Source: Clostridium phage slur17. From it: DNA of 41,318 bases. Below are positions 1 to 41,318 of the stretch, one piece after another (the first letter of the stretch is position 1; each line of letters starts with the position of its first letter). The stretch lies in the sequence record LN881738.1; one strand, written 5' to 3'. Made by a program: the position numbers and the translations under genes. The notes under the pieces were generated by a model. The model was not told the DNA's origin. It searched no databases and saw only the letters and a program-made list of their open reading frames with translations.

Positions 1-595
1 TGTCTGTAACTTCTTTAGTTAGAGTATCTTTAGTAGTATTAACATCACTAATCATGCTGTTTTTAGCGTCTGTAACTTCTGTAACTTTAGAGTCGAAAGT
101 TTCTTTTATACTATTAAATTCTTCGACTCTTTTAATTTCTGCTTCTTTTCTTGCTTCTTCTGTTTCTTTTATTTCTTCTATGCCTTCGACGACTTCTTTT
201 ACTTGATTTATTGTAACGCTGATATAATCCCATTTCGGTTCTTCTGTAATACTGTTTTTATCTATACTTTTCTCTATATTAATCTTTAAAGAAAAAGTAG
301 TAACAACTAAATCATCTTTGTAGAAAGTAAACTCTACTATTACATCCCCCGCAACTTCTGTTATGTTATTTTCTATTATAGTTGTTGCAATAGAATTTTC
401 TATAGTACAGCTCTGATAAACTATTTTCCCGTCTGGTCTTTGAAAATTTGCTATAGCTGTATATCCTGTCAAATCTTTTTCTATATTATTTTCTAATAAA
501 TTAATCTTAAATTCTATTGCATTATCATATTGCTTATATTTTGCAACTTGGTAACTTTTAGTGTTAATATCTACTGTATAAATTCTATCTCTCAA
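1..595 (-). CDS. Tail fibre / baseplate upper protein-like, N-terminal part; 3' end runs off the window start
   Basis: Hand translation of the minus strand: SD AAAGGAG (604-610), TTG start at 593-595, open frame to position 1 (LRDRIYTVDINTKSYQVAKYKQYDNAIEFKINLLENN...EEARKEAEIKRVEEFNSIKETFDSKVTEVTDAKNSMISDVNTTKDTLTKEVTD). Globular N-terminus then a coiled-coil-like repeat region. Not in the ORF track, which does not report window-truncated ORFs. Sits directly downstream of Tal in the tail operon. Confidence 0.5.
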   Translation of the reverse strand, partial: MRDRIYTVDINTKSYQVAKYKQYDNAIEFKINLLENNIEKDLTGYTAIANFQRPDGKIVYQSCTIENSIATTIIENNITEVAGDVIVEFTFYKDDLVVTTFSLKINIEKSIDKNSITEEPKWDYISVTINQVKEVVEGIEEIKETEEARKEAEIKRVEEFNSIKETFDSKVTEVTDAKNSMISDVNTTKDTLTKEVTD

Positions 596-609
596 ATTTA
601 TCACTCCTT

Positions 610-852
610 TTACTCTACCATTTTTGGAGTAAATTCTTTTATTATTTCTTTTTCCTTTAATACAAATTTTCCGTTTTCAATTTTATAATCACGAGGATTT
701 AAAATTTCTGGAATATCCTCGACAACTATTTTATCTAATATTTGCCTATAATCCTCTTCCCTATCTGCAAAGCAGGTATAATCCTGCTCCATCTCTGATT
801 TTATGCAATTATATATTTCTCCAGTTCTCTTGCTGTAAAAAATAGTAACCAT
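610..852 (-). CDS. Hypothetical small tail-module protein
   Basis: 80-aa ORF tightly packed between Tal and the fibre gene on the same strand; no recognisable motif. Confidence 0.45.
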   Translation of the reverse strand: MVTIFYSKRTGEIYNCIKSEMEQDYTCFADREEDYRQILDKIVVEDIPEILNPRDYKIENGKFVLKEKEIIKEFTPKMVE

Positions 853-878: not shown

Positions 879-2678
879 TTAAGCATAAACATAGTATTGT
901 ACTGTAATAAATCCTTCTGAAAAAAAATTCATTCCGAGCCAGTAGCCTATTGTTTGGCTTCCTGACATTTCGTAAGACACACCTCGCACAGATGCAGAAA
1001 GTTCCAATTGTGGATTTGTATCACTTTTTTTTGCTGTCGCTGATGTGCTGAAATAACTTAAACAGCTACCATTTGTTGATGTAGACCTTATTGCACAAGT
1101 TGCTTTAAAATTTTTACCTGCAAATTTTTTTGGTAAGTCTATTATGATTTTTGAATCTTTATAATCAAAGTATGTGTATCCACTTTCTTGAAGATAATAT
1201 GACTCTGTTACATCTGAACCGGTGTAGAATTTTGTATATAGCCCCGAGTCGGTCATTTTTGTAAATCCCTTCCCGCTTATAAGTTTCAATCCTTCATCAT
1301 CAATAAGAACATAAGGACTTACACTATTAAAAGCAATTTTAAAAGTATTTGGGTTAAAATGAACATCTCCAAAACTATCAATTTCCATTGTTTTGACTCC
1401 ATTATCATTTACGACTACCATTTCTCTAGCATTTATATACATGCCTTTTAGCTGTCCAAACCAACCTCTATCTAGCTTCAACTCCCCAATTAATGCATCT
1501 GCTATTGCTCCTTTTTCTATCCACATAGTTCCATCGTCGATTTTTGTAGTCTGTGCTTCTACTTGATTAGAGAACTCTGTAACATTTCCATGCGAGTTTA
1601 CTGCTCTTACTCTGAAATACCAAGTTTGAAAAGGTTCAGCTTGATGAACGTAAGCACTTGCTTGCCCTACAAAAATTCGATTTGTAAAATTAATTGTATC
1701 TGGTACAAAGTCTTTAATTTGAGACGCATAAACTTCATATTTGTAATAAGACTTATTTGTAAATGTCCATGTTAGATTGATAAAAGCGAATAACCCCTCT
1801 GCTGTCAAAGCTGGTGTATTCGGTAAAGTGTCTGGAAACTCTGAATCATCTACTTTGACATTATCAATAGCTTTTTTTACTGTTTCTATTTTATTTTCTA
1901 TATTATTAAACTTGTTATTTAAAAAGTCTAAATGATTTATTAAATCGCCAACTTCAATACTATAGTATTTTCGATTTATTGGGCTATAGTCTGTTTTAAC
2001 TACTCTAGCAGTTGCGTTAATGTTTAAATTAAAATCTCGTATTATCACTTCATCACCTAGATTGACTGTTTCTAGCATTTTGTAATCTTTATAATTTATA
2101 GTTGTAGATAAATCTACGAAGTTGACTTTGTATAAAACTTTTGGTAAATCAACTTGATTGTATTTAAAATAGTCTTTGCATTTTTCTCTTAATTCTTCTT
2201 CAACACTGACCTCATCAGAACTAAAATCTATAGCAACAATCTTTTGGGTAGCATATTTATTCATATTAGGACTAACAATGTATTTTTCTGTCAATGTAAT
2301 CATTTCATCTTCGTAGACCGCATAAGGATATATTTTTGTTACAATATCTTGTGTATCATACTCCGCTTCAAGCCCTGTTATATTTTTTTTATATGCAAGT
2401 AGCACATTTTTACTCTCACCTCTTTGATAATTTAAGAAAACATTAAAATTATCAAAGAAAAGTTTCGCAGTTGGTTCAAATTTTTGAATTAGAGAATTTT
2501 CGCCCTCGCAGATTGCGCTGTAAGGGCTTTGCATTTCAATATTAATAGTATTCCTTGCCTTGATGTCTGAATGTCCTCTAAATCTGTTCTGTTCCTCACA
2601 AGCACGAAAGACTCTTTCTAAAGCTTCTTCGCAAGTAATATCGTTCAATTCCAAACTTTCTATGAAATTATTAAGCAA
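879..2678 (-). CDS. Tail tip protein (Tal-like, tail-associated endopeptidase-type) with FN3-like segment
   Basis: 599-aa ORF immediately after Dit and the tape measure; C-terminal stretch YFRVRAVNSHGNVTEFSNQV resembles a fibronectin type III strand pattern. The frame stays open for about 98 codons upstream of the annotated TTG (to 2999), so the true start is probably further upstream (see findings). Confidence 0.6.
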   Translation of the reverse strand: MLNNFIESLELNDITCEEALERVFRACEEQNRFRGHSDIKARNTINIEMQSPYSAICEGENSLIQKFEPTAKLFFDNFNVFLNYQRGESKNVLLAYKKNITGLEAEYDTQDIVTKIYPYAVYEDEMITLTEKYIVSPNMNKYATQKIVAIDFSSDEVSVEEELREKCKDYFKYNQVDLPKVLYKVNFVDLSTTINYKDYKMLETVNLGDEVIIRDFNLNINATARVVKTDYSPINRKYYSIEVGDLINHLDFLNNKFNNIENKIETVKKAIDNVKVDDSEFPDTLPNTPALTAEGLFAFINLTWTFTNKSYYKYEVYASQIKDFVPDTINFTNRIFVGQASAYVHQAEPFQTWYFRVRAVNSHGNVTEFSNQVEAQTTKIDDGTMWIEKGAIADALIGELKLDRGWFGQLKGMYINAREMVVVNDNGVKTMEIDSFGDVHFNPNTFKIAFNSVSPYVLIDDEGLKLISGKGFTKMTDSGLYTKFYTGSDVTESYYLQESGYTYFDYKDSKIIIDLPKKFAGKNFKATCAIRSTSTNGSCLSYFSTSATAKKSDTNPQLELSASVRGVSYEMSGSQTIGYWLGMNFFSEGFITVQYYVYA

Positions 2679-3007: not shown

Positions 3008-3763
3008 TTATAAAATATTCCATCTAGGATTTATTTTTATGCTTTTTATATCCCCTTCCCAGCTAATCTGATTTTCTCCTTCTTCAAGTATGGGAAAGTC
3101 ACTAAAAAGCTTATTATTTTCATTTACAATAATGTTATTTTCTTTGTTTATTCTATATACATTCATCTGTTCGCTATCTATTATTAAGTCGCTTAAAATT
3201 CCATTTTCTGCCACCCCTCTTAGCACTATGCTTTGAGTATTTATTTTTATACTTATGTCCCCTGCTCCTTCTATATAGAGAACAGGTTTTGACTCTCTAT
3301 AGAAATTTGTTATAGTAGCACTCTTTAGATTTAATACATTTAAACTTATAATTTCTTCTTCTGCGTATCTAAAAGGGTAGCAGTCGAATGTTAAAAGACA
3401 TGATGCAAAGTTTTTAAAATTTCTAGTTATATCTAGTTTATTGTTACAGCTTGCTAGATAATAAAAGTCACTATTACTTAAAAAAAGTTTTTTATATGAT
3501 ATATCGCCCTGTAGCCATTTTTTTATTTCTGTTGCAACTTCTTCTATATTACTTTGTCTTGCATCTATATCGCATTCTATTGTAAGCGTAAAATTTTCAA
3601 AACCTTTTTTTAGTAGTAAATCTCCATCTTTGCCTGGCACACTCACTCTTTCAACTTCCATCTGTGGAGCTGATAAGTCGTTTATATTGTATATTTTTAA
3701 ACCAAATTCTCTGCTGTCTCGACCGTTATAAACGAAAAACATAGCTTTATGCCCTCCTCTCAT
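3008..3763 (-). CDS. Distal tail protein (Dit-like)
   Basis: 251-aa ORF directly downstream of the tape measure gene, the canonical Dit position in siphovirus tail modules; call by synteny only. Confidence 0.55.
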   Translation of the reverse strand: MRGGHKAMFFVYNGRDSREFGLKIYNINDLSAPQMEVERVSVPGKDGDLLLKKGFENFTLTIECDIDARQSNIEEVATEIKKWLQGDISYKKLFLSNSDFYYLASCNNKLDITRNFKNFASCLLTFDCYPFRYAEEEIISLNVLNLKSATITNFYRESKPVLYIEGAGDISIKINTQSIVLRGVAENGILSDLIIDSEQMNVYRINKENNIIVNENNKLFSDFPILEEGENQISWEGDIKSIKINPRWNIL

Positions 3764-3862: not shown

Positions 3863-6800
3863 TTATAAAGCTCCTTTTCTTTTTGCTAAGAACAATATTT
3901 CATCAAAAAGATTTTCTATATCTTGTTGTCTATTATTTACAAAGTTTTCTATATTAAGTTTAATACCTGCTTGATTTTCATTAGCTTCATCAGCCTTATT
4001 ATTACTCATTATAGCTGTTTCTTTTCCAGCTTTAAAATCTGTACTTGCAACTATATTAGCTTGTATTTTAGACGTTTCAAAATTAACTGTAGCTTTTAAT
4101 TTACCTGTAAGTTCAGATATATTTTTCTCTATTTTTTCTTTCAAGCCTGGCGTTTCTACATCTATTCCAACGCCGACCCCTTTTACAAGATTTCTACCAA
4201 TTAAATCTCGCATGATTATGGAAGGTGAATGCACTCCAAAGCCGTCTCTAAATCCATCTATAACATTACTAGCAAAATCAAGGACTTGGTCTTTTAACCA
4301 GCCACCCATGCCCGTTATACCTTCCCATAAGCCTCTTACAACATCTTTCCCGATACTCATAATTTTACTAGGCAAATCTTTCAAAGCATCCTTAACAGCA
4401 TTTGCCATATTTTTTCCAGCTTCTCCAGCTTGTTTGACTAAGTTAGTCCCCCAGCTTATGACATTTGAAATGATATTGTCTAGCCATTCTCTAAATTTTC
4501 CTGGAAGCTGGCTAACAGTATTGTATATATTGTTAAAAAAGTTTTTCGCTGTTTCTAAAGCTTTTTTAGATAAATTAACTTCCCACTCCATGACTTTTTG
4601 CATTATATTAGTTAATTTTTCCCATATTTTGCCCGGAAGTTCTGAAAAGAATTTCATTATATTTTCTAAGAATTTGCTTCCTGTTTCTAATGCTTTTTGA
4701 ATTAGATTAGAACCCCATTCCGAAACTTTTCCCATGATATCTGTAAACTTTTCCCATAATTTTCCCGGAAGCTCCGAAATTGGAATTAATACATTGTCAA
4801 CAAATTGATTAAAAATATCTGTTGCCAATTGCTTTAAATTTTCGCCCCAGCCACTTATTGTTTCTACTACTGTATTAAACCATTCCGAAATTCTTTCGGG
4901 TAGCTCTGTAAAAAACTGTGTTATATTTTCCCAAATTGCACCAAAAAACTCTGAAACAGAAACCTTGAAATTTTCGCCCCAAGTTTGAATATTTTGCAAT
5001 ATGATACTAAAAAATTCCGAAATTTTTTCCGGAAGGCTTACAAACCATTCGACAATGCTATTTATTATTTCTGGTAATGTTTCTGTTGCCCAGGCGTACA
5101 GATTAGCTCCTAAATCAACGAAAAAACCAGCAATAGACCCGATTACAAAACCAATATTATATGGAATTTGTTTAAACCATTCGACAATATTATTTATTAT
5201 AGCTGGCATTGTCTCATTAAAGAAACTTGATATTTTTTCTCCTATTTTCCCACATTCTTCTTTTATCTTGTCGCCAATACCCGCAAACCATTTTGGTACT
5301 GTGCTAGTAAAAAAGTCTAAACCACTTTTTAATCCGCTTCCAATTGCATCTCCAATTTTTGACCCAGTCTCTTTGAACCAATTGCTAAGACCGCCGAAAA
5401 TCTCTACAGCTTTATCTTTTATACTTGAAAAACCTTGCTGTGCCTTATCTCCAAACTCTGTAAAAAAGTCTCCAGCTCCTGCAAATCCTTCACTTATTTT
5501 ATTTCCAAGACCACCAAAAAATCCACCTATATTTTCAATTCCTTCTTTGAATTTATCTTTTACTTTAGAGAAGAAATCACCAATAGAATTTTTTGCACTA
5601 GCTAGCCACTCATTTATATTTTTGTCTGTATCTCTTAGCCATTTTTCTATTCCACCAAAAAAACCACCAATGCCATTGAACCCTTTTTTTATACTTTCAG
5701 ATAATTTACTAGCTGAATCCCCAACTTTAGGGACTGTTCCTGTTACGAGTTCATCACTGACAAGTTCTAAGCCTTCAACAGAAGTTTTAACATCATCTAT
5801 GCCATCAGCATATTCTTCTAGTTCTCCAGCGTCCAGTTTGGCAGAACCAGAATCCAAAGAGGAACTTTTAGCAGATGAGTCTACATCCCCTCCACTTGCG
5901 CTAGAAGTATTAGCTTTTTCTTTTAGTTTCTCATATTCTTCTAACTTTTTCTTCAATCTATCAAGCTCTTTTTCTTGTGCTGGTATAATCTCTTTTAAGT
6001 TAATAGCTTCCTTTACAGCTTCCTGGATAGATTGCTTTTTAGAGTTAACTCCATTTAACAAACTATCTGCTAAACTCTGCCCTGCATCCTGCCAATGCGG
6101 GTTATATTCACTTAAAAGTTTTATAATTTCTTCTGAATTTTTTTGTAAAAGTAGCCTTCTCGCTTCATTTTGAATATTTGTCTCTTCTAAAAGTTCACTA
6201 AAATATTTTTCAATTTCTTCTTTTTGACTAGCATTAGACTCTTTTATCAATTCAAGTTTTTTACTTTCTGCTTCTTTTTGATTGTCGTACTCTTCTTTGT
6301 ACTGCTCTTTTTTGTTACTAGCTTCTGTTTTTATATTTTCAATCTGTTCTTTTAATCTGTTTTTTTCTTGTTGCCTTTGTTCATCTAATAATTTCTTCTG
6401 TCTATCTGATTGTGCTTCTGATATTTCTTTTTGTATTTTTTCTCGTTCTTTTTGATTTTTAGCTGTTGCTAGTTTCCTGTCAAGGTCGCTTATTTTTTCA
6501 TTGTACGCTTTCTCTTCTTCTGCTTTTTGTTCTTCTTCAATTTGCTTGTCTATGGCGTCAATTTGTTCTTGTATAGCATTAGTTTTCTCATTTGTTTCTG
6601 TATCTAAATACTTTAATTTCTCATTGTATTCTTTTTCATAGACCTTTAATCTATCATTTGATGCCTTTTCCTCAACTTTTAGTCTTTCATCAAGCGCTTT
6701 TATTTGTATATCTTTTTGACTTTCATATTGATTTTTTAATGCTGTAGTTATAGCCTCGCAAATTTTTTCAAATTTACTCTTGTTGGTCTCAAGATTTTTT

Positions 6801-37901: not shown

Positions 37902-39752
37902 TTAAATTGCTTGATACATTGCGTAAGTAAAATAACCGTCTCCGCTTTGGTCATATCTAGCCCCGCCTAATGTTATAAACTTTTTGGTTTCATCTTTATA
38001 GCCATTTCCTCTGCCTGCTTCTATACTTGTATTGTAGCCATGATACACAATTCCATAATAACTATTACCTTTATATCCATAACAATAAGTTATGCCTACA
38101 TAAGTACTATTAATAGTTTGCGGTGGGTTATCATCAGCATCCGCAAAGCCTGTGATAGTTCTAAAATAAGCAGTACTTCCTTGTATTGTGTTCTGTATAT
38201 TATTTTTGTAAGTTTGTAAAGTTGAATTTTTGCTAATTAATATGCTTTTAGCTGTATTACTTTTAACCATTCTGTTAAGTGCAAGTCCTGTAAGTGTTAT
38301 TTTGGTCATAGCCGTTGAGCTATTTGCAATTATGCCCATTGCTGTTGTATTATTTACAAAAACACTTATAGACGTATCGTTATTTGCAACTGTCGACATA
38401 GCTTGTGCGTTATTTGCAATTATGCCCATTGCTGTTGTATTATTTGCAATAGTAACGTTATTTTCTGAAATAGTGAGCATAGCATTGAAAGCAGTAGAGT
38501 TATTTGCTATCTTAGTAAAAGCAGTAGTTTTATTTACTAAAATATTTATAGCTGTTGTACTTTTCATAAAAGCATTTAATGACACTGTTTTACTGAAAAT
38601 ACTTTCTATAATTCCCACTCGGTCACCAACTTTATTTACTATAATAGAATTATTTGCAAAAGTTGCCATTGCGATTGAACTTTCTAAAATTGCATCCGAA
38701 ATTTTTATTTTTTCCTCAATATCTCGTTGTGATATATTACGTGTGGTTTCCATACCATCATAATTTTTTACTGCATTTTTTAAAATCGGGAATATTTCTT
38801 CATTATAAGTTATTGCCATAATTTGACCTTTACCAGAAGCAATATTTGATTTTATTGTATTTATATAATTTAAAGAAGTTTGTAAATTATACTTCATTTC
38901 TAATAAATTAGGGATTATTTTTTCAACAGTAACATTATTAGTTAATATTTTATTTATGCTATTTTGGTTTTGCACTAATACTTTTGTAGCTTCTAAGTCA
39001 TTAAATATTTCCATTACGGAGTTTTCGTTACTTGAAATTTGTGTCATAGCTTCATCACTATTTATAATCGCATCCCTAATCACATTATTTTTTAAAATTG
39101 CTCTAATGACTGGTGACTCTGTTGTAACTCTTAAAATATATTGACCTAATAAATCCATAGCATTTGAACTTGCTACAACTGCGTCCATGCTTGATTTACA
39201 CATAGTTAAAGCTACTATTGCATTACTATTATTAAGTATTGCATTAGTAGCTTCCACATTTGCTAATATTTCTTCTATAGTTGTAAGATTTTCTAAATCA
39301 GTATTATCTAAGCTAAAAGTAGAATTAAACCATGCTCCTATAGTTGACTTTTCTTGTTCTCTTGTAACATATCTATCATACCCTGCTTTAAATTTTTCCT
39401 CTAATGAATTATAATGCTCTATAGTCATTTCTTTTACTACATTATCAGCATTTCCTAAGCTAAATATATCTGTTCTATAAAAGGCATTTAATTGTTCCCC
39501 TAGCTTAGTGCTTTTATTAAATAAATTATCAATATCAGTTTCTGAAAAAGCTGTGTAAACTGTTTCTCTTATTCCTCTATCAGAAAATAAATATAAACTA
39601 TTTAAATATAATTCTTCCCATATCCTAGCATTTCCAATAAACAGCACATAACTATCTAATCCATTTAGTTTTATGTCTTGCAAATAACTTAAAAAATTTA
39701 GTGGCTCGCCTTGCAAGTCACTATTCACTTTGTATGTCTCCGCCCAACTCAT
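37902..39752 (-). CDS. Tail fibre / receptor-binding protein with tandem 19-20 aa Asn/Thr/Ala repeats
   Basis: 616 aa; repeats such as NNTTAMGIIANNAQAMSTVANNDTSISVF; Gly/Tyr-rich C-terminal globular region; start overlaps the upstream fibre stop by 1 nt. Confidence 0.6.
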   Translation of the reverse strand: MSWAETYKVNSDLQGEPLNFLSYLQDIKLNGLDSYVLFIGNARIWEELYLNSLYLFSDRGIRETVYTAFSETDIDNLFNKSTKLGEQLNAFYRTDIFSLGNADNVVKEMTIEHYNSLEEKFKAGYDRYVTREQEKSTIGAWFNSTFSLDNTDLENLTTIEEILANVEATNAILNNSNAIVALTMCKSSMDAVVASSNAMDLLGQYILRVTTESPVIRAILKNNVIRDAIINSDEAMTQISSNENSVMEIFNDLEATKVLVQNQNSINKILTNNVTVEKIIPNLLEMKYNLQTSLNYINTIKSNIASGKGQIMAITYNEEIFPILKNAVKNYDGMETTRNISQRDIEEKIKISDAILESSIAMATFANNSIIVNKVGDRVGIIESIFSKTVSLNAFMKSTTAINILVNKTTAFTKIANNSTAFNAMLTISENNVTIANNTTAMGIIANNAQAMSTVANNDTSISVFVNNTTAMGIIANSSTAMTKITLTGLALNRMVKSNTAKSILISKNSTLQTYKNNIQNTIQGSTAYFRTITGFADADDNPPQTINSTYVGITYCYGYKGNSYYGIVYHGYNTSIEAGRGNGYKDETKKFITLGGARYDQSGDGYFTYAMYQAI

Positions 39753-41318
39753 TAACTCACCTCTTCTTTTATTTCTTCTATTTGATTACCTTTAAAAGTC
39801 GTTTTTACTTTACTTACTAATACATTATCTATATATTTTTCGTCTACTATAGTCCCATCTGCATTAAATTTAGTTATAGTTTTACTAACCGAGTCTAAAA
39901 TATCTGTTATAGAGCCGTCTGAATTAAAAGTCGTGCTTTTTTTAATGTAATCTAACTCTTTCGGTTTTTCTAATAACTCATTCCATGTAACTTTTCCTTT
40001 TGACGCTTTCCCCGTGTCTTCTCCATTTATAAACCAATTACCGTTTTCGCCGATTGCTGGAGTATAACCTTGTTCCCCTCTAAGCTCTGTATATATATAT
40101 TCCGTTTGTCCTTCTTCTCTAATACCTAGCTGACTTCCATTCCAATTAAATTCTAATTTATTTCCTGTCGCTCCTTTTAGATTTGTATAGCTATAGTCCT
40201 CTTGACCTTCTATTCTAACGCCTAGCTCCGTACCATCCCAACTAAATTCAATGCTATCGCCTTTTTGACCTTTCAAATCTGTATAAGTATAATTCTCCTG
40301 TCCTTCTATCCTTACACCTAGTCGTGTGCCATCCCATGCAAATTCGATATTGTCACCTTTGAGGTCTATATACTTATAATCTAATTCGTATTGTTGCCTA
40401 ACGCCTAACTGTGTGCCATCCCAATTAAATTCTAGGTTCTTGCCGTCCACGCCCGCTAGAGAACCTAAGTCTTCCCATTTAGTTTGATATATATAAATAT
40501 TTCTCCCTATAATCCAGCAATCTCCGATAGTAGGGTCTAATGGTAAGTTATCTATAGAATCTAATTTTCCTAAAATCCTCAAAGATGCCCCTCTAGCTGG
40601 TTTTTGGGTATCTATATTATTAATCCACCAGTTTCCATTTTCTCCTATTGTTGGAGTATAACCCTGCTCCCCTTTCAATTCTGTATAACTATAATTTTCT
40701 TGACCTTCTATCTTTATACCTAATCGTGTGCCATTCCAATTAAATTCAATACTATCACCTTTATCGCCTTTTTGACCTTTTAAATCTGTATAAGTATAAT
40801 TCTCCTGTCCTTCTATCCTTATACCTAGTCGCGTGCCATCCCAATTAAATTCTAAGCCATCTCCATTTTCACCCTTTATTTTTATGTCAGGAACTTTGAC
40901 CCAATTAGTGTTGTCCCAAACATATAAATCAATTTGGTTTTCTATTGTTGCGCTTTTTACAAAGTAAGCATCACTTAAAGTTGGATTGACTGGAAGTGCT
41001 GATATATTATCTAAACTTCCTTTTATTTCTATTCCTACCCCTTTTAACTCTTCTTTTGTGGGGATTGCATTAATAGCGTCTGTAACTTCTGTCTGCATAG
41101 TTTCTTTAGCTGTAGTTACTTCGCTAATCATAGTATTTTTAGCTGTTGTAACTTCCGCTTTAACTGTGTTAACTTCGTCTATTAATGTTGTTTTAGTAGT
41201 ATTAACATCACTAATCATGCTGTTTTTAGCGTCTGTAACTTCTGTAACTTTAGAGTCGAAAGTTTCTTTTATACTATTAAATTCTTCGACCCTTTTACCT
41301 TCTGCGATTTCTAATTCT
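39752..41318 (-). CDS. Tail fibre protein with six ~30-aa tandem repeats; N-terminus lies beyond the window end
   Basis: The frame is open from 41318 down to the stop at 39752; the ORF track starts it at an internal Met (41218). Contains coiled-coil heptad-like units (EVTDAKNSMISDVNTTK) and six copies of (L/I)EFNWDGTRLGIRIEGQENYTYTDLKG. Confidence 0.6.
   Translation of the reverse strand, partial: ELEIAEGKRVEEFNSIKETFDSKVTEVTDAKNSMISDVNTTKTTLIDEVNTVKAEVTTAKNTMISEVTTAKETMQTEVTDAINAIPTKEELKGVGIEIKGSLDNISALPVNPTLSDAYFVKSATIENQIDLYVWDNTNWVKVPDIKIKGENGDGLEFNWDGTRLGIRIEGQENYTYTDLKGQKGDKGDSIEFNWNGTRLGIKIEGQENYSYTELKGEQGYTPTIGENGNWWINNIDTQKPARGASLRILGKLDSIDNLPLDPTIGDCWIIGRNIYIYQTKWEDLGSLAGVDGKNLEFNWDGTQLGVRQQYELDYKYIDLKGDNIEFAWDGTRLGVRIEGQENYTYTDLKGQKGDSIEFSWDGTELGVRIEGQEDYSYTNLKGATGNKLEFNWNGSQLGIREEGQTEYIYTELRGEQGYTPAIGENGNWFINGEDTGKASKGKVTWNELLEKPKELDYIKKSTTFNSDGSITDILDSVSKTITKFNADGTIVDEKYIDNVLVSKVKTTFKGNQIEEIKEEVS

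Follow-up and report, generated by a model that had tools for sequence, protein, structure and literature searches.

The window analyzed here is the whole 41,318-nucleotide stretch of Clostridium phage slur17 (LN881738.1). It shares 97-99% nucleotide identity with Leicestervirus phages and represents a phiCD38-2-like siphophage of Clostridioides difficile. The genes are arranged in the order Dit, Tal, a small ORF, the fibre gene studied here, the receptor-binding protein (RBP) gene, holin and endolysin (Table 1). The ORF in the Dit position has a 251-aa homologue in a prophage with a three-unit fibre (L005), and this homologue matches PF05709 (Sipho_tail). Dit and Tal precede the fibre gene and the RBP gene comes immediately after it, a location that fits the placement of BppU-type genes. 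As read from the sequence, the ATG of the RBP gene overlaps the TAA of the fibre gene by one base (TAATG).

The ORF flagged in the sequence-only reading is the C-terminal two thirds of a BppU-family "tail fiber" gene that is already known. It is the ortholog of phiCD38-2 gp20 (AEF56895.1) and CDHS-1 Gp21 (ALY06964.1), and its last 437 aa show no differences from gp20 of phiCD38-2 and phiCD146 and one difference from gp21 of phiCD111. The description of the product as a fibre protein agrees with its assignment to phrog_9525 ("tail fiber protein") in PHROGs and with the same name in GenBank; close relatives at NCBI are listed as "BppU family phage baseplate upper protein." The missing N terminus lies at the other end of the window, where the minus-strand translation of 604..1 matches the N termini of phiCD38-2 and phiCD146 gp20 when the sequences are read side by side. 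In phiCD38-2 gp20, residues 16-134 match PF10651 (BppU_N; E=4.9e-9, 36.5 bits, cut-off 23.1). The published primers for cloning CDHS-1 gp21 gave exact matches at both ends of the gene, the forward primer at window 604..585 and the reverse primer at 39752-39775.

The boundaries of the flagged ORF (39752-41218) stood at one end only: the stop at 39752 is correct, but 41218 is merely the first in-frame ATG. The minus-strand frame is open from 39752 through the end of the window at 41318 (521 codons), and the gene is cut again at the left end of the window. Both window ends fall inside a 228-nt tandem repeat, and the fibre ORF is split across them because the contig broke within this repeat. About 100 nt are identical between the two ends, and at least 75 nt are absent between position 1 and position 41318. 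Direct circular joining of the ends does not restore the frame. The repeat encodes 76 aa of a putative stalk. In phiCD38-2 and AR1075-1 it has a period of 228 nt and is present in 2.5 copies with 99% identity, and relatives in C. difficile carry 0.5, 1.5 or 2.5 copies. The stalk sequence is periodic, and its matches to the Apolipoprotein, V-SNARE and HIP1 families are weak and below threshold. On account of the same repeat, many short-read assemblies of C. difficile stop the phage contig in the fibre gene.

Table 1. Features of the fibre locus and its neighbours in the 41,318-nt window
Feature	Position	Strand	Basis or remark
Tail component protein (phiCD38-2 gp17 counterpart; Dit position)	3008-3763		window ORF
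Tal	879-2678		PF06605
Small ORF	610-852		between Tal and fibre gene
5' part of fibre gene: GTG start at 604, BppU_N Ig-like anchor and start of stalk	1..604	(-)	primer, translation, PF10651
Last part of putative alpha-helical stalk, including end of 228-nt (76-aa) tandem repeat	41066..41318	(-)	open frame, identical ends
Head module 1 (GIEIKGSLDNISALPVNPTLSDAYF...W..W), ends GENGDG	40856..41035	(-)	AF2 model, aligns with head module 2
Unit R1, LEFNWDGTRLGIRIEGQENYTYTDLKG	40775..40855	(-)	repeat analysis, AF2
G-X-Y linker QKGDKGDS after R1	40751-40774	(-)	
Unit R2, IEFNWNGTRLGIKIEGQENYSYTELKG	40670..40750	(-)	repeat analysis, AF2
Tail module 1, EQGYTPTIGENGNWWINNIDTQKPARGA, beta-hairpin module	40586..40669	(-)	AF2
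Head module 2 (SLRILGKLDSIDNLPLDPTIGDCWI...W), ends GVDGKN	40436..40585	(-)	AF2, alignment with head module 1
Unit R3, LEFNWDGTQLGVRQQYELDYKYIDLKG	40355..40435	(-)	most divergent unit
Unit R4, IEFAWDGTRLGVRIEGQENYTYTDLKG	40268..40348	(-)	90% DNA identity to R1
Unit R5, IEFSWDGTELGVRIEGQEDYSYTNLKG	40172..40252	(-)	
Unit R6, LEFNWNGSQLGIREEGQTEYIYTELRG	40076..40156	(-)	
Tail module 2, EQGYTPAIGENGNWFINGEDTGKASKGK	39992..40075	(-)	AF2
Conserved C-terminal beta domain (VTWNELLEKPKELDY...TTFKGNQIEEIKEEVS) and stop codon 39752-39754	39752..39991	(-)	
RBP gene, ortholog of CDHS-1 Gp22 / phiCD38-2 gp21	37902..39752	(-)	PDB 7QLR

Repeat analysis of the flagged region recovered the six repeat units that had been proposed, each a copy of a 27-aa unit with the pattern [LI]EFxW[DN]G[ST]xLG[IV][RK]...Y.Y..L[KR]G. 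A profile of the unit, searched against 1.84 billion proteins, hit the family representative in 6 stretches with an E value of 7.5e-92, far beyond chance. The higher-order duplication also was upheld: an LPxxPTxxD head module is followed by units and then by GYTPxIGENGNWxIN, and the two blocks align with 43% identity (E=2e-46). The units are not divided three and three between the blocks, as had been claimed, but two and four, and the BLASTP alignment of the blocks requires a two-unit gap. Nor are the DNA repeats 85 to 95% identical; the 81-nt cores range from 65 to 90% in pairwise comparison and mostly lie near 70%, with R1/R4 at 90%, R1/R2 at 84%, R2/R4 at 83% and the other 12 pairs at 65-75%. 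At a larger scale, R6 with tail module 2 pairs with R2 with tail module 1 (DNA repeat family D3; 71% over 157 nt). Head module 1 also is present in collagen-like proteins that are otherwise unrelated (P0029, P0039 and P0091), and in other proteins the GxNGNW tail module is itself repeated in tandem.

An AF2 monomer model was used to assess the fold of these modules. Each unit was modelled as three strands with a pLDDT of about 80 to 90, and the linkers were of low confidence. Head module 1 was modelled as four strands and a short helix (pLDDT of about 88 to 93), and the C-terminal domain as five strands (pLDDT, 80 to 86). The unit, lying between short collagen-like G-X-Y triplets, thus is predicted to be a beta element of three strands, one face of which is hydrophobic and invariant. 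Among 118 nonredundant units, W8, L13, L28 and G30 were invariant, hydrophobic positions alternated and G1, G30 and G33 flanked the element. We also ran a pseudo-trimer through AlphaFold, in which R4-R6 was repeated three times with Gly-Ser linkers in between and the alignment had 27 rows, its linkers trimmed; this run was uninformative (pLDDT 41, pTM 0.23), and for this reason we can only infer the trimeric state.

Proteins with the unit make up about 1,100 clusters, and most are collagen-like phage fibres, in which the unit is set within collagen repeats. The domains on either side vary among the homologues, the anchors being BppU_N, Sipho_Gp37, Prophage_tail or Mtd_N and the distal ones S74 chaperone, Collar, GDSL lipase or pectate-lyase-like, a pattern that favors a shaft role. 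Neither Pfam nor NCBIfam holds a curated model for the unit, and PHROGs gives it no functional name; PF22337 (Phage_fiber_rpt) matches in the homologues cover a different C-terminal segment. PDB sequence searches with full-length gp20 and with the profile of the 118 units returned no solved structure resembling it. We found published accounts of gp20/Gp21 to describe the N-terminal BppU-like domain only and found no description of the beta-unit or repeat architecture. Two family assignments of the fibre protein were rejected. It has no match to the collagen family PF01391 at E<=1, its longest G-X-Y run being three triplets, whereas distant homologues with the unit do match PF01391. Membership in CE2_N (PF17996) was rejected because the match is below the cut-off (20.8 versus 27.9 bits) and is limited to some 30 residues (profile positions 19-48 of 108).

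That the fibre is modular, with a module number that changes among relatives, was confirmed. C. difficile relatives carry three, six (2+4) or seven (3+4) units, and the seventh unit arose by a 105-nt duplication in AR1075-1 and two C. difficile contigs. Compared with the window, the fibre of the three-unit prophage L005 is 87% identical in the N-terminal domain and 88% identical in the last 85 aa, and the shaft between them differs. Its downstream RBP is 76-80% identical to that of the window over the first 150 aa, and identity falls to 20-30% toward the C terminus. Across the fibre family, divergence is greatest in units R1, R4 and R5 (63-78% identity), which may point to selection acting on exposed surfaces and not to neutral drift of a spacer. 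The gp20 differences described by Royer et al. for phiCD38-2, phiCD146 and phiCD111 are confined to the stalk and do not involve the beta-repeat region.

Experiments on related phages bear directly on host binding. In the near-identical phage CDHS-1, immunogold TEM located Gp21 at the virion baseplate (Dowah et al., preprint, bioRxiv 10.1101/2021.07.05.451159). In the same study infection was lost under anti-Gp22 serum, Gp22 itself bound to cells and prevented adsorption, and infection was unaffected by anti-Gp21 serum, a result obtained with a single polyclonal serum and available as a preprint. The window RBP aligns with PDB 7QLR chain A over 616/616 residues (E=0) and is one residue off gp21 of phiCD38-2 and phiCD146. 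Gp22 is a dimer in solution, an awkward fit with a trimeric carrier. The SlpA cassette types used by phiCD111 are different ones, and domain D2 is dispensable for this phage (Royer 2023, PMC10100898; PMC12680318). Variation that might track receptor specificity in the C-terminal 437 aa of the fibre amounts to 0 to 1 differences among the window, phiCD38-2, phiCD146 and phiCD111. The finding is therefore largely ordinary, in that the fibre was already known and published experiments place host binding in the gene that follows.

Taken together, the region encodes the distal two thirds of a BppU-family baseplate fibre, which we consider probably to act as a length-variable, probably trimeric shaft or adaptor. 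The N-terminal BppU_N Ig-like domain (window 604..1, minus strand) would anchor the protein to the baseplate and leads into a putative alpha-helical stalk whose length varies in 76-aa steps. The flagged region follows with two head modules, six 27-aa units predicted to be three-stranded and two GENGNW hairpins, neighbouring beta modules being kept apart by two or three collagen-like G-X-Y triplets, and a small conserved C-terminal beta domain completes the fibre. Three chains would run in parallel, with the face of each unit (L, F/Y, W / L, V/I / Y, Y, L) buried around the threefold axis, and the repeats would be the beads of a semirigid shaft that sets the length and reach of the fibre. Unequal recombination between units would change their number, in line with the 105-nt duplication noted above. 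The shaft would carry the conserved C-terminal domain, which possibly docks the N terminus of the true RBP, itself made from the immediately downstream gene and probably translationally coupled to the fibre gene. This domain is a candidate docking site on the basis of co-conservation: it is 88% identical, and the RBP N terminus 76-80% identical, in the relative with three units. The collagen-like stretches of the fibre span just two or three triplets and do not match PF01391, which counts against the shaft reading.

The sequence-only reading held that the fibre is itself a receptor-binding protein whose repeats may determine host range, a view in keeping with the "tail fiber protein" label in GenBank and PHROGs and with modular repeats that vary in copy number. 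We regard it as very unlikely, since the downstream protein is the RBP by neutralization, cell binding, competition and crystal structure, anti-Gp21 serum did not neutralize, and the repeat region is alike in phiCD111 and in phiCD38-2/phiCD146, whose receptor isoforms are different. A compositional or chance artefact of AT-rich or noncoding DNA has practically no probability: only the low G+C content of the window speaks for it, and it is refuted by the long open frame, by identical proteins in characterized phages, by the score of the unit profile and by conservation of the unit across its protein clusters.

These data leave room for an accessory role of the fibre in adsorption. As an accessory adhesin, its beta units or head modules would weakly bind an abundant surface component, for example cell-wall polysaccharide or the S-layer, provide a reversible first contact and modulate adsorption efficiency, with Gp22 remaining decisive. 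The position of the fibre at the periphery of the baseplate, the divergence of R1, R4 and R5 within the family and the local, subthreshold beta-sandwich likeness to CE2_N (which reaches 26.6 bits in P0030) are consistent with this notion, Royer et al. explicitly allow a role for gp20/21, and the BppU_N-anchored FibL and FibU of staphylococcal phage 80alpha likewise are suspected of host interactions. However, infection was unchanged under anti-Gp21 serum, the repeat region is the same or one residue off across phages of differing SlpA cassette specificity, the unit pairs with many distal domains, as a connector would, and carbohydrate-binding families all fell below threshold. We consider an adhesin possible but unlikely, and continue to favor the shaft or adaptor.

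In practical terms, the repeat-rich "tail fiber" of phiCD38-2-like phages is very probably not the host-range determinant, which corrects a tempting misannotation, and RBP engineering in these phages, which are candidates for C. difficile therapy and engineering, should target the downstream Gp22-class gene. [quoted passage not shown] If true, the number of units (3, 6 or 7) in C. difficile phages and the 76-aa stalk repeat would together tune RBP reach through or across the S-layer.

Comparison with known systems places the fibre most closely with CDHS-1 Gp21, phiCD38-2 gp20, phiCD146 gp20 and phiCD111 gp21, which are the same gene with like neighbours and matching published primers and whose lengths (674, 744 and 820 aa) reflect different numbers of the 76-aa stalk repeat, their sole difference. 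Further afield, it resembles BppU of Lactococcus phage TP901-1 (ORF48; PDB 3UH8, 4V96) in having a BppU_N Ig-like domain, and the putative stalk that follows would correspond to the helical stalk of BppU. Both genes lie directly upstream of an RBP gene, and by analogy the fibre may share the role of linking the RBP to the baseplate core. The C-terminal domain of TP901-1 BppU holds trimeric BppL. Unlike the fibre, TP901-1 BppU is only about 300 aa and has neither beta units nor a collagen-like shaft; the shaft of the window fibre adds more than 400 aa, and the RBP encoded next to it belongs to another class, that of a dimeric alpha-superhelix protein.

FibL (gp62) and FibU (gp68) of Staphylococcus phage 80alpha are similar in being fibres at the baseplate periphery whose N-terminal Ig domain is BppU-like. 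After this domain FibL has a coiled coil and FibU a collagen-like segment, both proteins are distinct from the main RBP, and FibL costabilizes the RBP whereas FibU is dispensable (PMC7048315). No sequence similarity between the fibre and FibL or FibU was found past the N-terminal domain. In further contrast to the fibre, FibL ends in tower and beta-sandwich domains, and the 80alpha RBP binds Dit directly.

The beta units themselves are shared with collagen-like phage tail fibres (P0028-P0032 and P0036, among the clusters noted above), which have the common consensus GxxLEFxWxGTxLGVRxEGxxxYxYxDLKGxxG. In these proteins the unit is always flanked by G-X-Y and occurs in 1 to 7 copies, but the units are spaced by 10 to 70 triplets that match PF01391, compared with 2 to 3 triplets per junction in the fibre. 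The 27-aa unit recurs as a building block in collagen-like phage fibres and would be a reasonable target for family definition and for determination of a trimer structure.

The stretch with the repeat-bearing open reading frame (ORF) was 97 to 99% identical in nucleotide sequence to Leicestervirus siphophages that infect Clostridioides difficile (CDSH1 [CDHS-1], phiCD38-2, phiCD146, phiCD111, and AR1075-1), in which two adjacent genes annotated "tail fiber protein" lie under this stretch. PHROGs assigned the ORF to phrog_9525 ("tail fiber protein") over profile positions 208 to 728 of 728; because the alignment begins at position 208, the ORF lacks an N terminus. By domain and gene position, the tests that could be run, the fiber protein belongs to the BppU family. 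It did not qualify as a member of the collagen family, of CE2_N, or of the fiber repeats described to date. The fiber gene and its baseplate role are already known.

The ORF stays open up to the window end, and the 5' part of the gene lies at the opposite end. The two published primers for cloning gp21 of CDHS-1 (Dowah et al., bioRxiv 10.1101/2021.07.05.451159) match both parts exactly. Since a 228-nt (76-amino-acid) tandem repeat of the fiber gene spans each end of the window and the ends share approximately 100 identical nucleotides, the gene is split across them, with at least 25 codons (75 nt) absent. "Partial" versions of the protein form clusters of 79, 91, 61, and 53 members from many public C. 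difficile assemblies, on contigs of approximately 40 to 42 kb, with hundreds of copies at contig ends; such breaks are therefore an artifact that assembly produces repeatedly. Start codon annotation varies, being the GTG (VINLRDR...) for phiCD146 and the CDHS-1 cloning primer and a TTG 9 nt downstream in phiCD38-2, phiCD111, and AR1075-1. All relatives retain an 80-amino-acid ORF between the Tal gene and the fiber gene (gp19 in phiCD38-2), and a 101-amino-acid gene occupies its position in a prophage with a three-unit fiber (L005); the 80-amino-acid ORF had no family match.

Features of the fiber gene and its surroundings in the window and in related loci (RBP, receptor-binding protein; R1 to R6, repeat units)
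Feature	Locus	Position	Remark
Fiber gene, 5' part	Window	604..1, minus strand	GTG at 604
Fiber gene, repeat-bearing ORF	Window	39752..41218, minus strand	
Window ends in 228-nt repeat	Window	1-142; 41170-41318	
gp21 cloning primers	Window	604..585, minus strand; 39752..39775	start primer, 585-604
R1, R2	Window	40775-40855; 40670-40750	block 1
R3, R4	Window	40355-40435; 40268-40348	block 2
R5, R6	Window	40172-40252; 40076-40156	block 2
80-amino-acid ORF	Window	610-852, minus strand	
TAATG junction	Window	39750-39754	in L005 at 6329
RBP gene	Window	37902-39752, minus strand	
30-nt period	Window	38307-38450, minus strand	in RBP gene; 4.8 copies, 61% matches
RBP homolog	L005	6329-8131	
105-nt array	L003 (AR1075-1)	4920-5206	2.7 copies, 94% identity
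Stalk repeat	L001	7441-8010	
Stalk repeat	L003	5546-6115	
Stalk repeat	L002, L004		in fiber genes

The sequence-only reading described six repeats of approximately 30 amino acids, and six 27-amino-acid units were confirmed at that location. It also proposed a duplicated block; a head module (LPxxPTxxD), units, and a tail module (GYTPxIGENGNWxIN) do occur twice (43% identity; E = 2e-46), but the units are divided 2+4 rather than 3+3. The proposed DNA identity of approximately 85 to 95% was too high: unit cores are 65 to 90% identical, with 3 pairs at 83 to 90% and the other 12 at 65 to 75%. R1 is nearest to R4 of the other block (90% DNA identity) in the window lineage, whereas their counterparts in the lineage of homolog P0007 are clearly more different in protein, which suggests that gene conversion may have acted between the two blocks.

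Evolution by repeat gain and loss was borne out among the relatives, in which both the unit count and a stalk repeat vary. Prophage forms (e.g., P0021) of 415 to 442 amino acids carry three units in a single block, the common form (674 to 820 amino acids) carries 2+4, and AR1075-1 (855 amino acids) and two contigs carry 3+4 by a 105-nt duplication. The seventh unit (AR1075-1, P0001, and P0002) arises from the 105-nt array and is a hybrid that begins like R2 and continues with the body of R1; unequal crossing-over between neighboring units would be expected to give such a product. Independently of the units, the 76-amino-acid stalk repeat is present in 0.5 copies in phiCD146, 1.5 in phiCD111 and the 746-amino-acid forms, and 2.5 in phiCD38-2 and AR1075-1 (99% identity over 228 nt in the latter two), giving proteins of 674, 744 to 746, and 820 amino acids. 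Fiber length thus changes in fixed steps, with the distal 437 amino acids remaining constant.

The suggestion that the fiber binds the receptor and sets host range was not supported. Dowah et al. located Gp21, whose N terminus resembles TP901-1 BppU, in the baseplate and found infection unaffected by anti-Gp21 serum; anti-Gp22 serum abolished infection, and Gp22 bound cells and competed with adsorption. The product of the downstream RBP gene corresponds to Gp22 and PDB 7QLR. Royer et al. (PMC10100898) regarded gp21/22 as the RBP and described gp20/21 as a fiber differing between phages; by our comparison, these differences are confined entirely to the stalk. The window shares its C-terminal 437 amino acids unchanged with phiCD38-2 and phiCD146, and phiCD111 departs from them at a single residue. 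Even so, phiCD111 uses SLCT-6 in place of SLCT-11 and can dispense with domain D2 of SlpA (PMC10100898; PMC12680318); the repeat region therefore cannot explain these differences in specificity. Tandem Repeats Finder reported a 30-nt period within the RBP gene, corresponding to a 10-residue periodicity of the NNTTAMGIIAN type where Gp22 forms its alpha-superhelix.

Alignment of 118 nonredundant units gave the consensus GxxLEFxWxGTxLGVRxEGxxxYxYVDLKGxxG, with W8, L13, L28, and G30 invariant and glycines 1, 30, and 33 carrying the G-X-Y register on at both flanks. In an AlphaFold2 monomer model (mean pLDDT, 72; pTM, 0.23), each unit forms three short strands (pLDDT, approximately 80 to 90) joined by low-confidence linkers. 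Because the hydrophobic positions alternate, one sheet face is hydrophobic and conserved. We infer that three chains run in parallel as a trimer and that each unit forms a bead, since so small a sheet cannot bury its hydrophobic face alone and since the flanking collagen-type triplets, BppU-type anchor, and helical stalk agree; a pseudo-trimer AlphaFold run was uninformative. No solved structure matched the unit by sequence or fold, and no Pfam or NCBIfam model covers it.

A unit profile matched approximately 1,100 clusters among 1.84 billion representatives, mostly collagen-like phage fiber proteins with up to 7 units each. Their N-terminal anchors vary (BppU_N, Sipho_Gp37, Prophage_tail, and Mtd_N), as do their distal domains (S74 chaperone, Collar, GDSL lipase, pectate-lyase-like, and LRR), as would be expected for a connector rather than a specificity domain. 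What is modestly new is that the unit is a widespread, uncurated, structurally unsolved fiber module. The head and GENGNW modules each occur independently in other proteins. A GxNGNW(W/F)I.G.DTG hairpin module forms arrays of 4 to 6 copies at the N terminus of lipoprotein-like proteins (P0077 and P0080 to P0120), which also contain BspA-type LRRs together with Listeria-Bacteroides repeats (PF09479); phage fibers and bacterial surface proteins therefore have this module in common.

The three-unit prophage has the gene order of the window, including the TAATG junction, in which the fiber stop and RBP start overlap by one base; this suggests that translation of the two genes may be coupled. Its fiber matches the long form in the N-terminal domain (87% identity) and last 85 amino acids (88% identity). 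Its RBP homolog is 76 to 80% identical to that of the window over the first 150 amino acids and 20 to 30% in the C-terminal third, which in 7QLR contains the Mg2+-binding beta-sandwich, a clear pattern of conserved anchor and variable tip. Gp22 is a dimer in solution (Dowah et al.). The conserved fiber ends, variable middle, and conserved RBP N terminus would fit a carrier with a candidate RBP-meeting C-terminal domain. Its closest functional counterparts are TP901-1 BppU and two BppU_N-anchored fibers of the staphylococcal phage 80alpha, FibL and FibU, all distinct from the main RBP.
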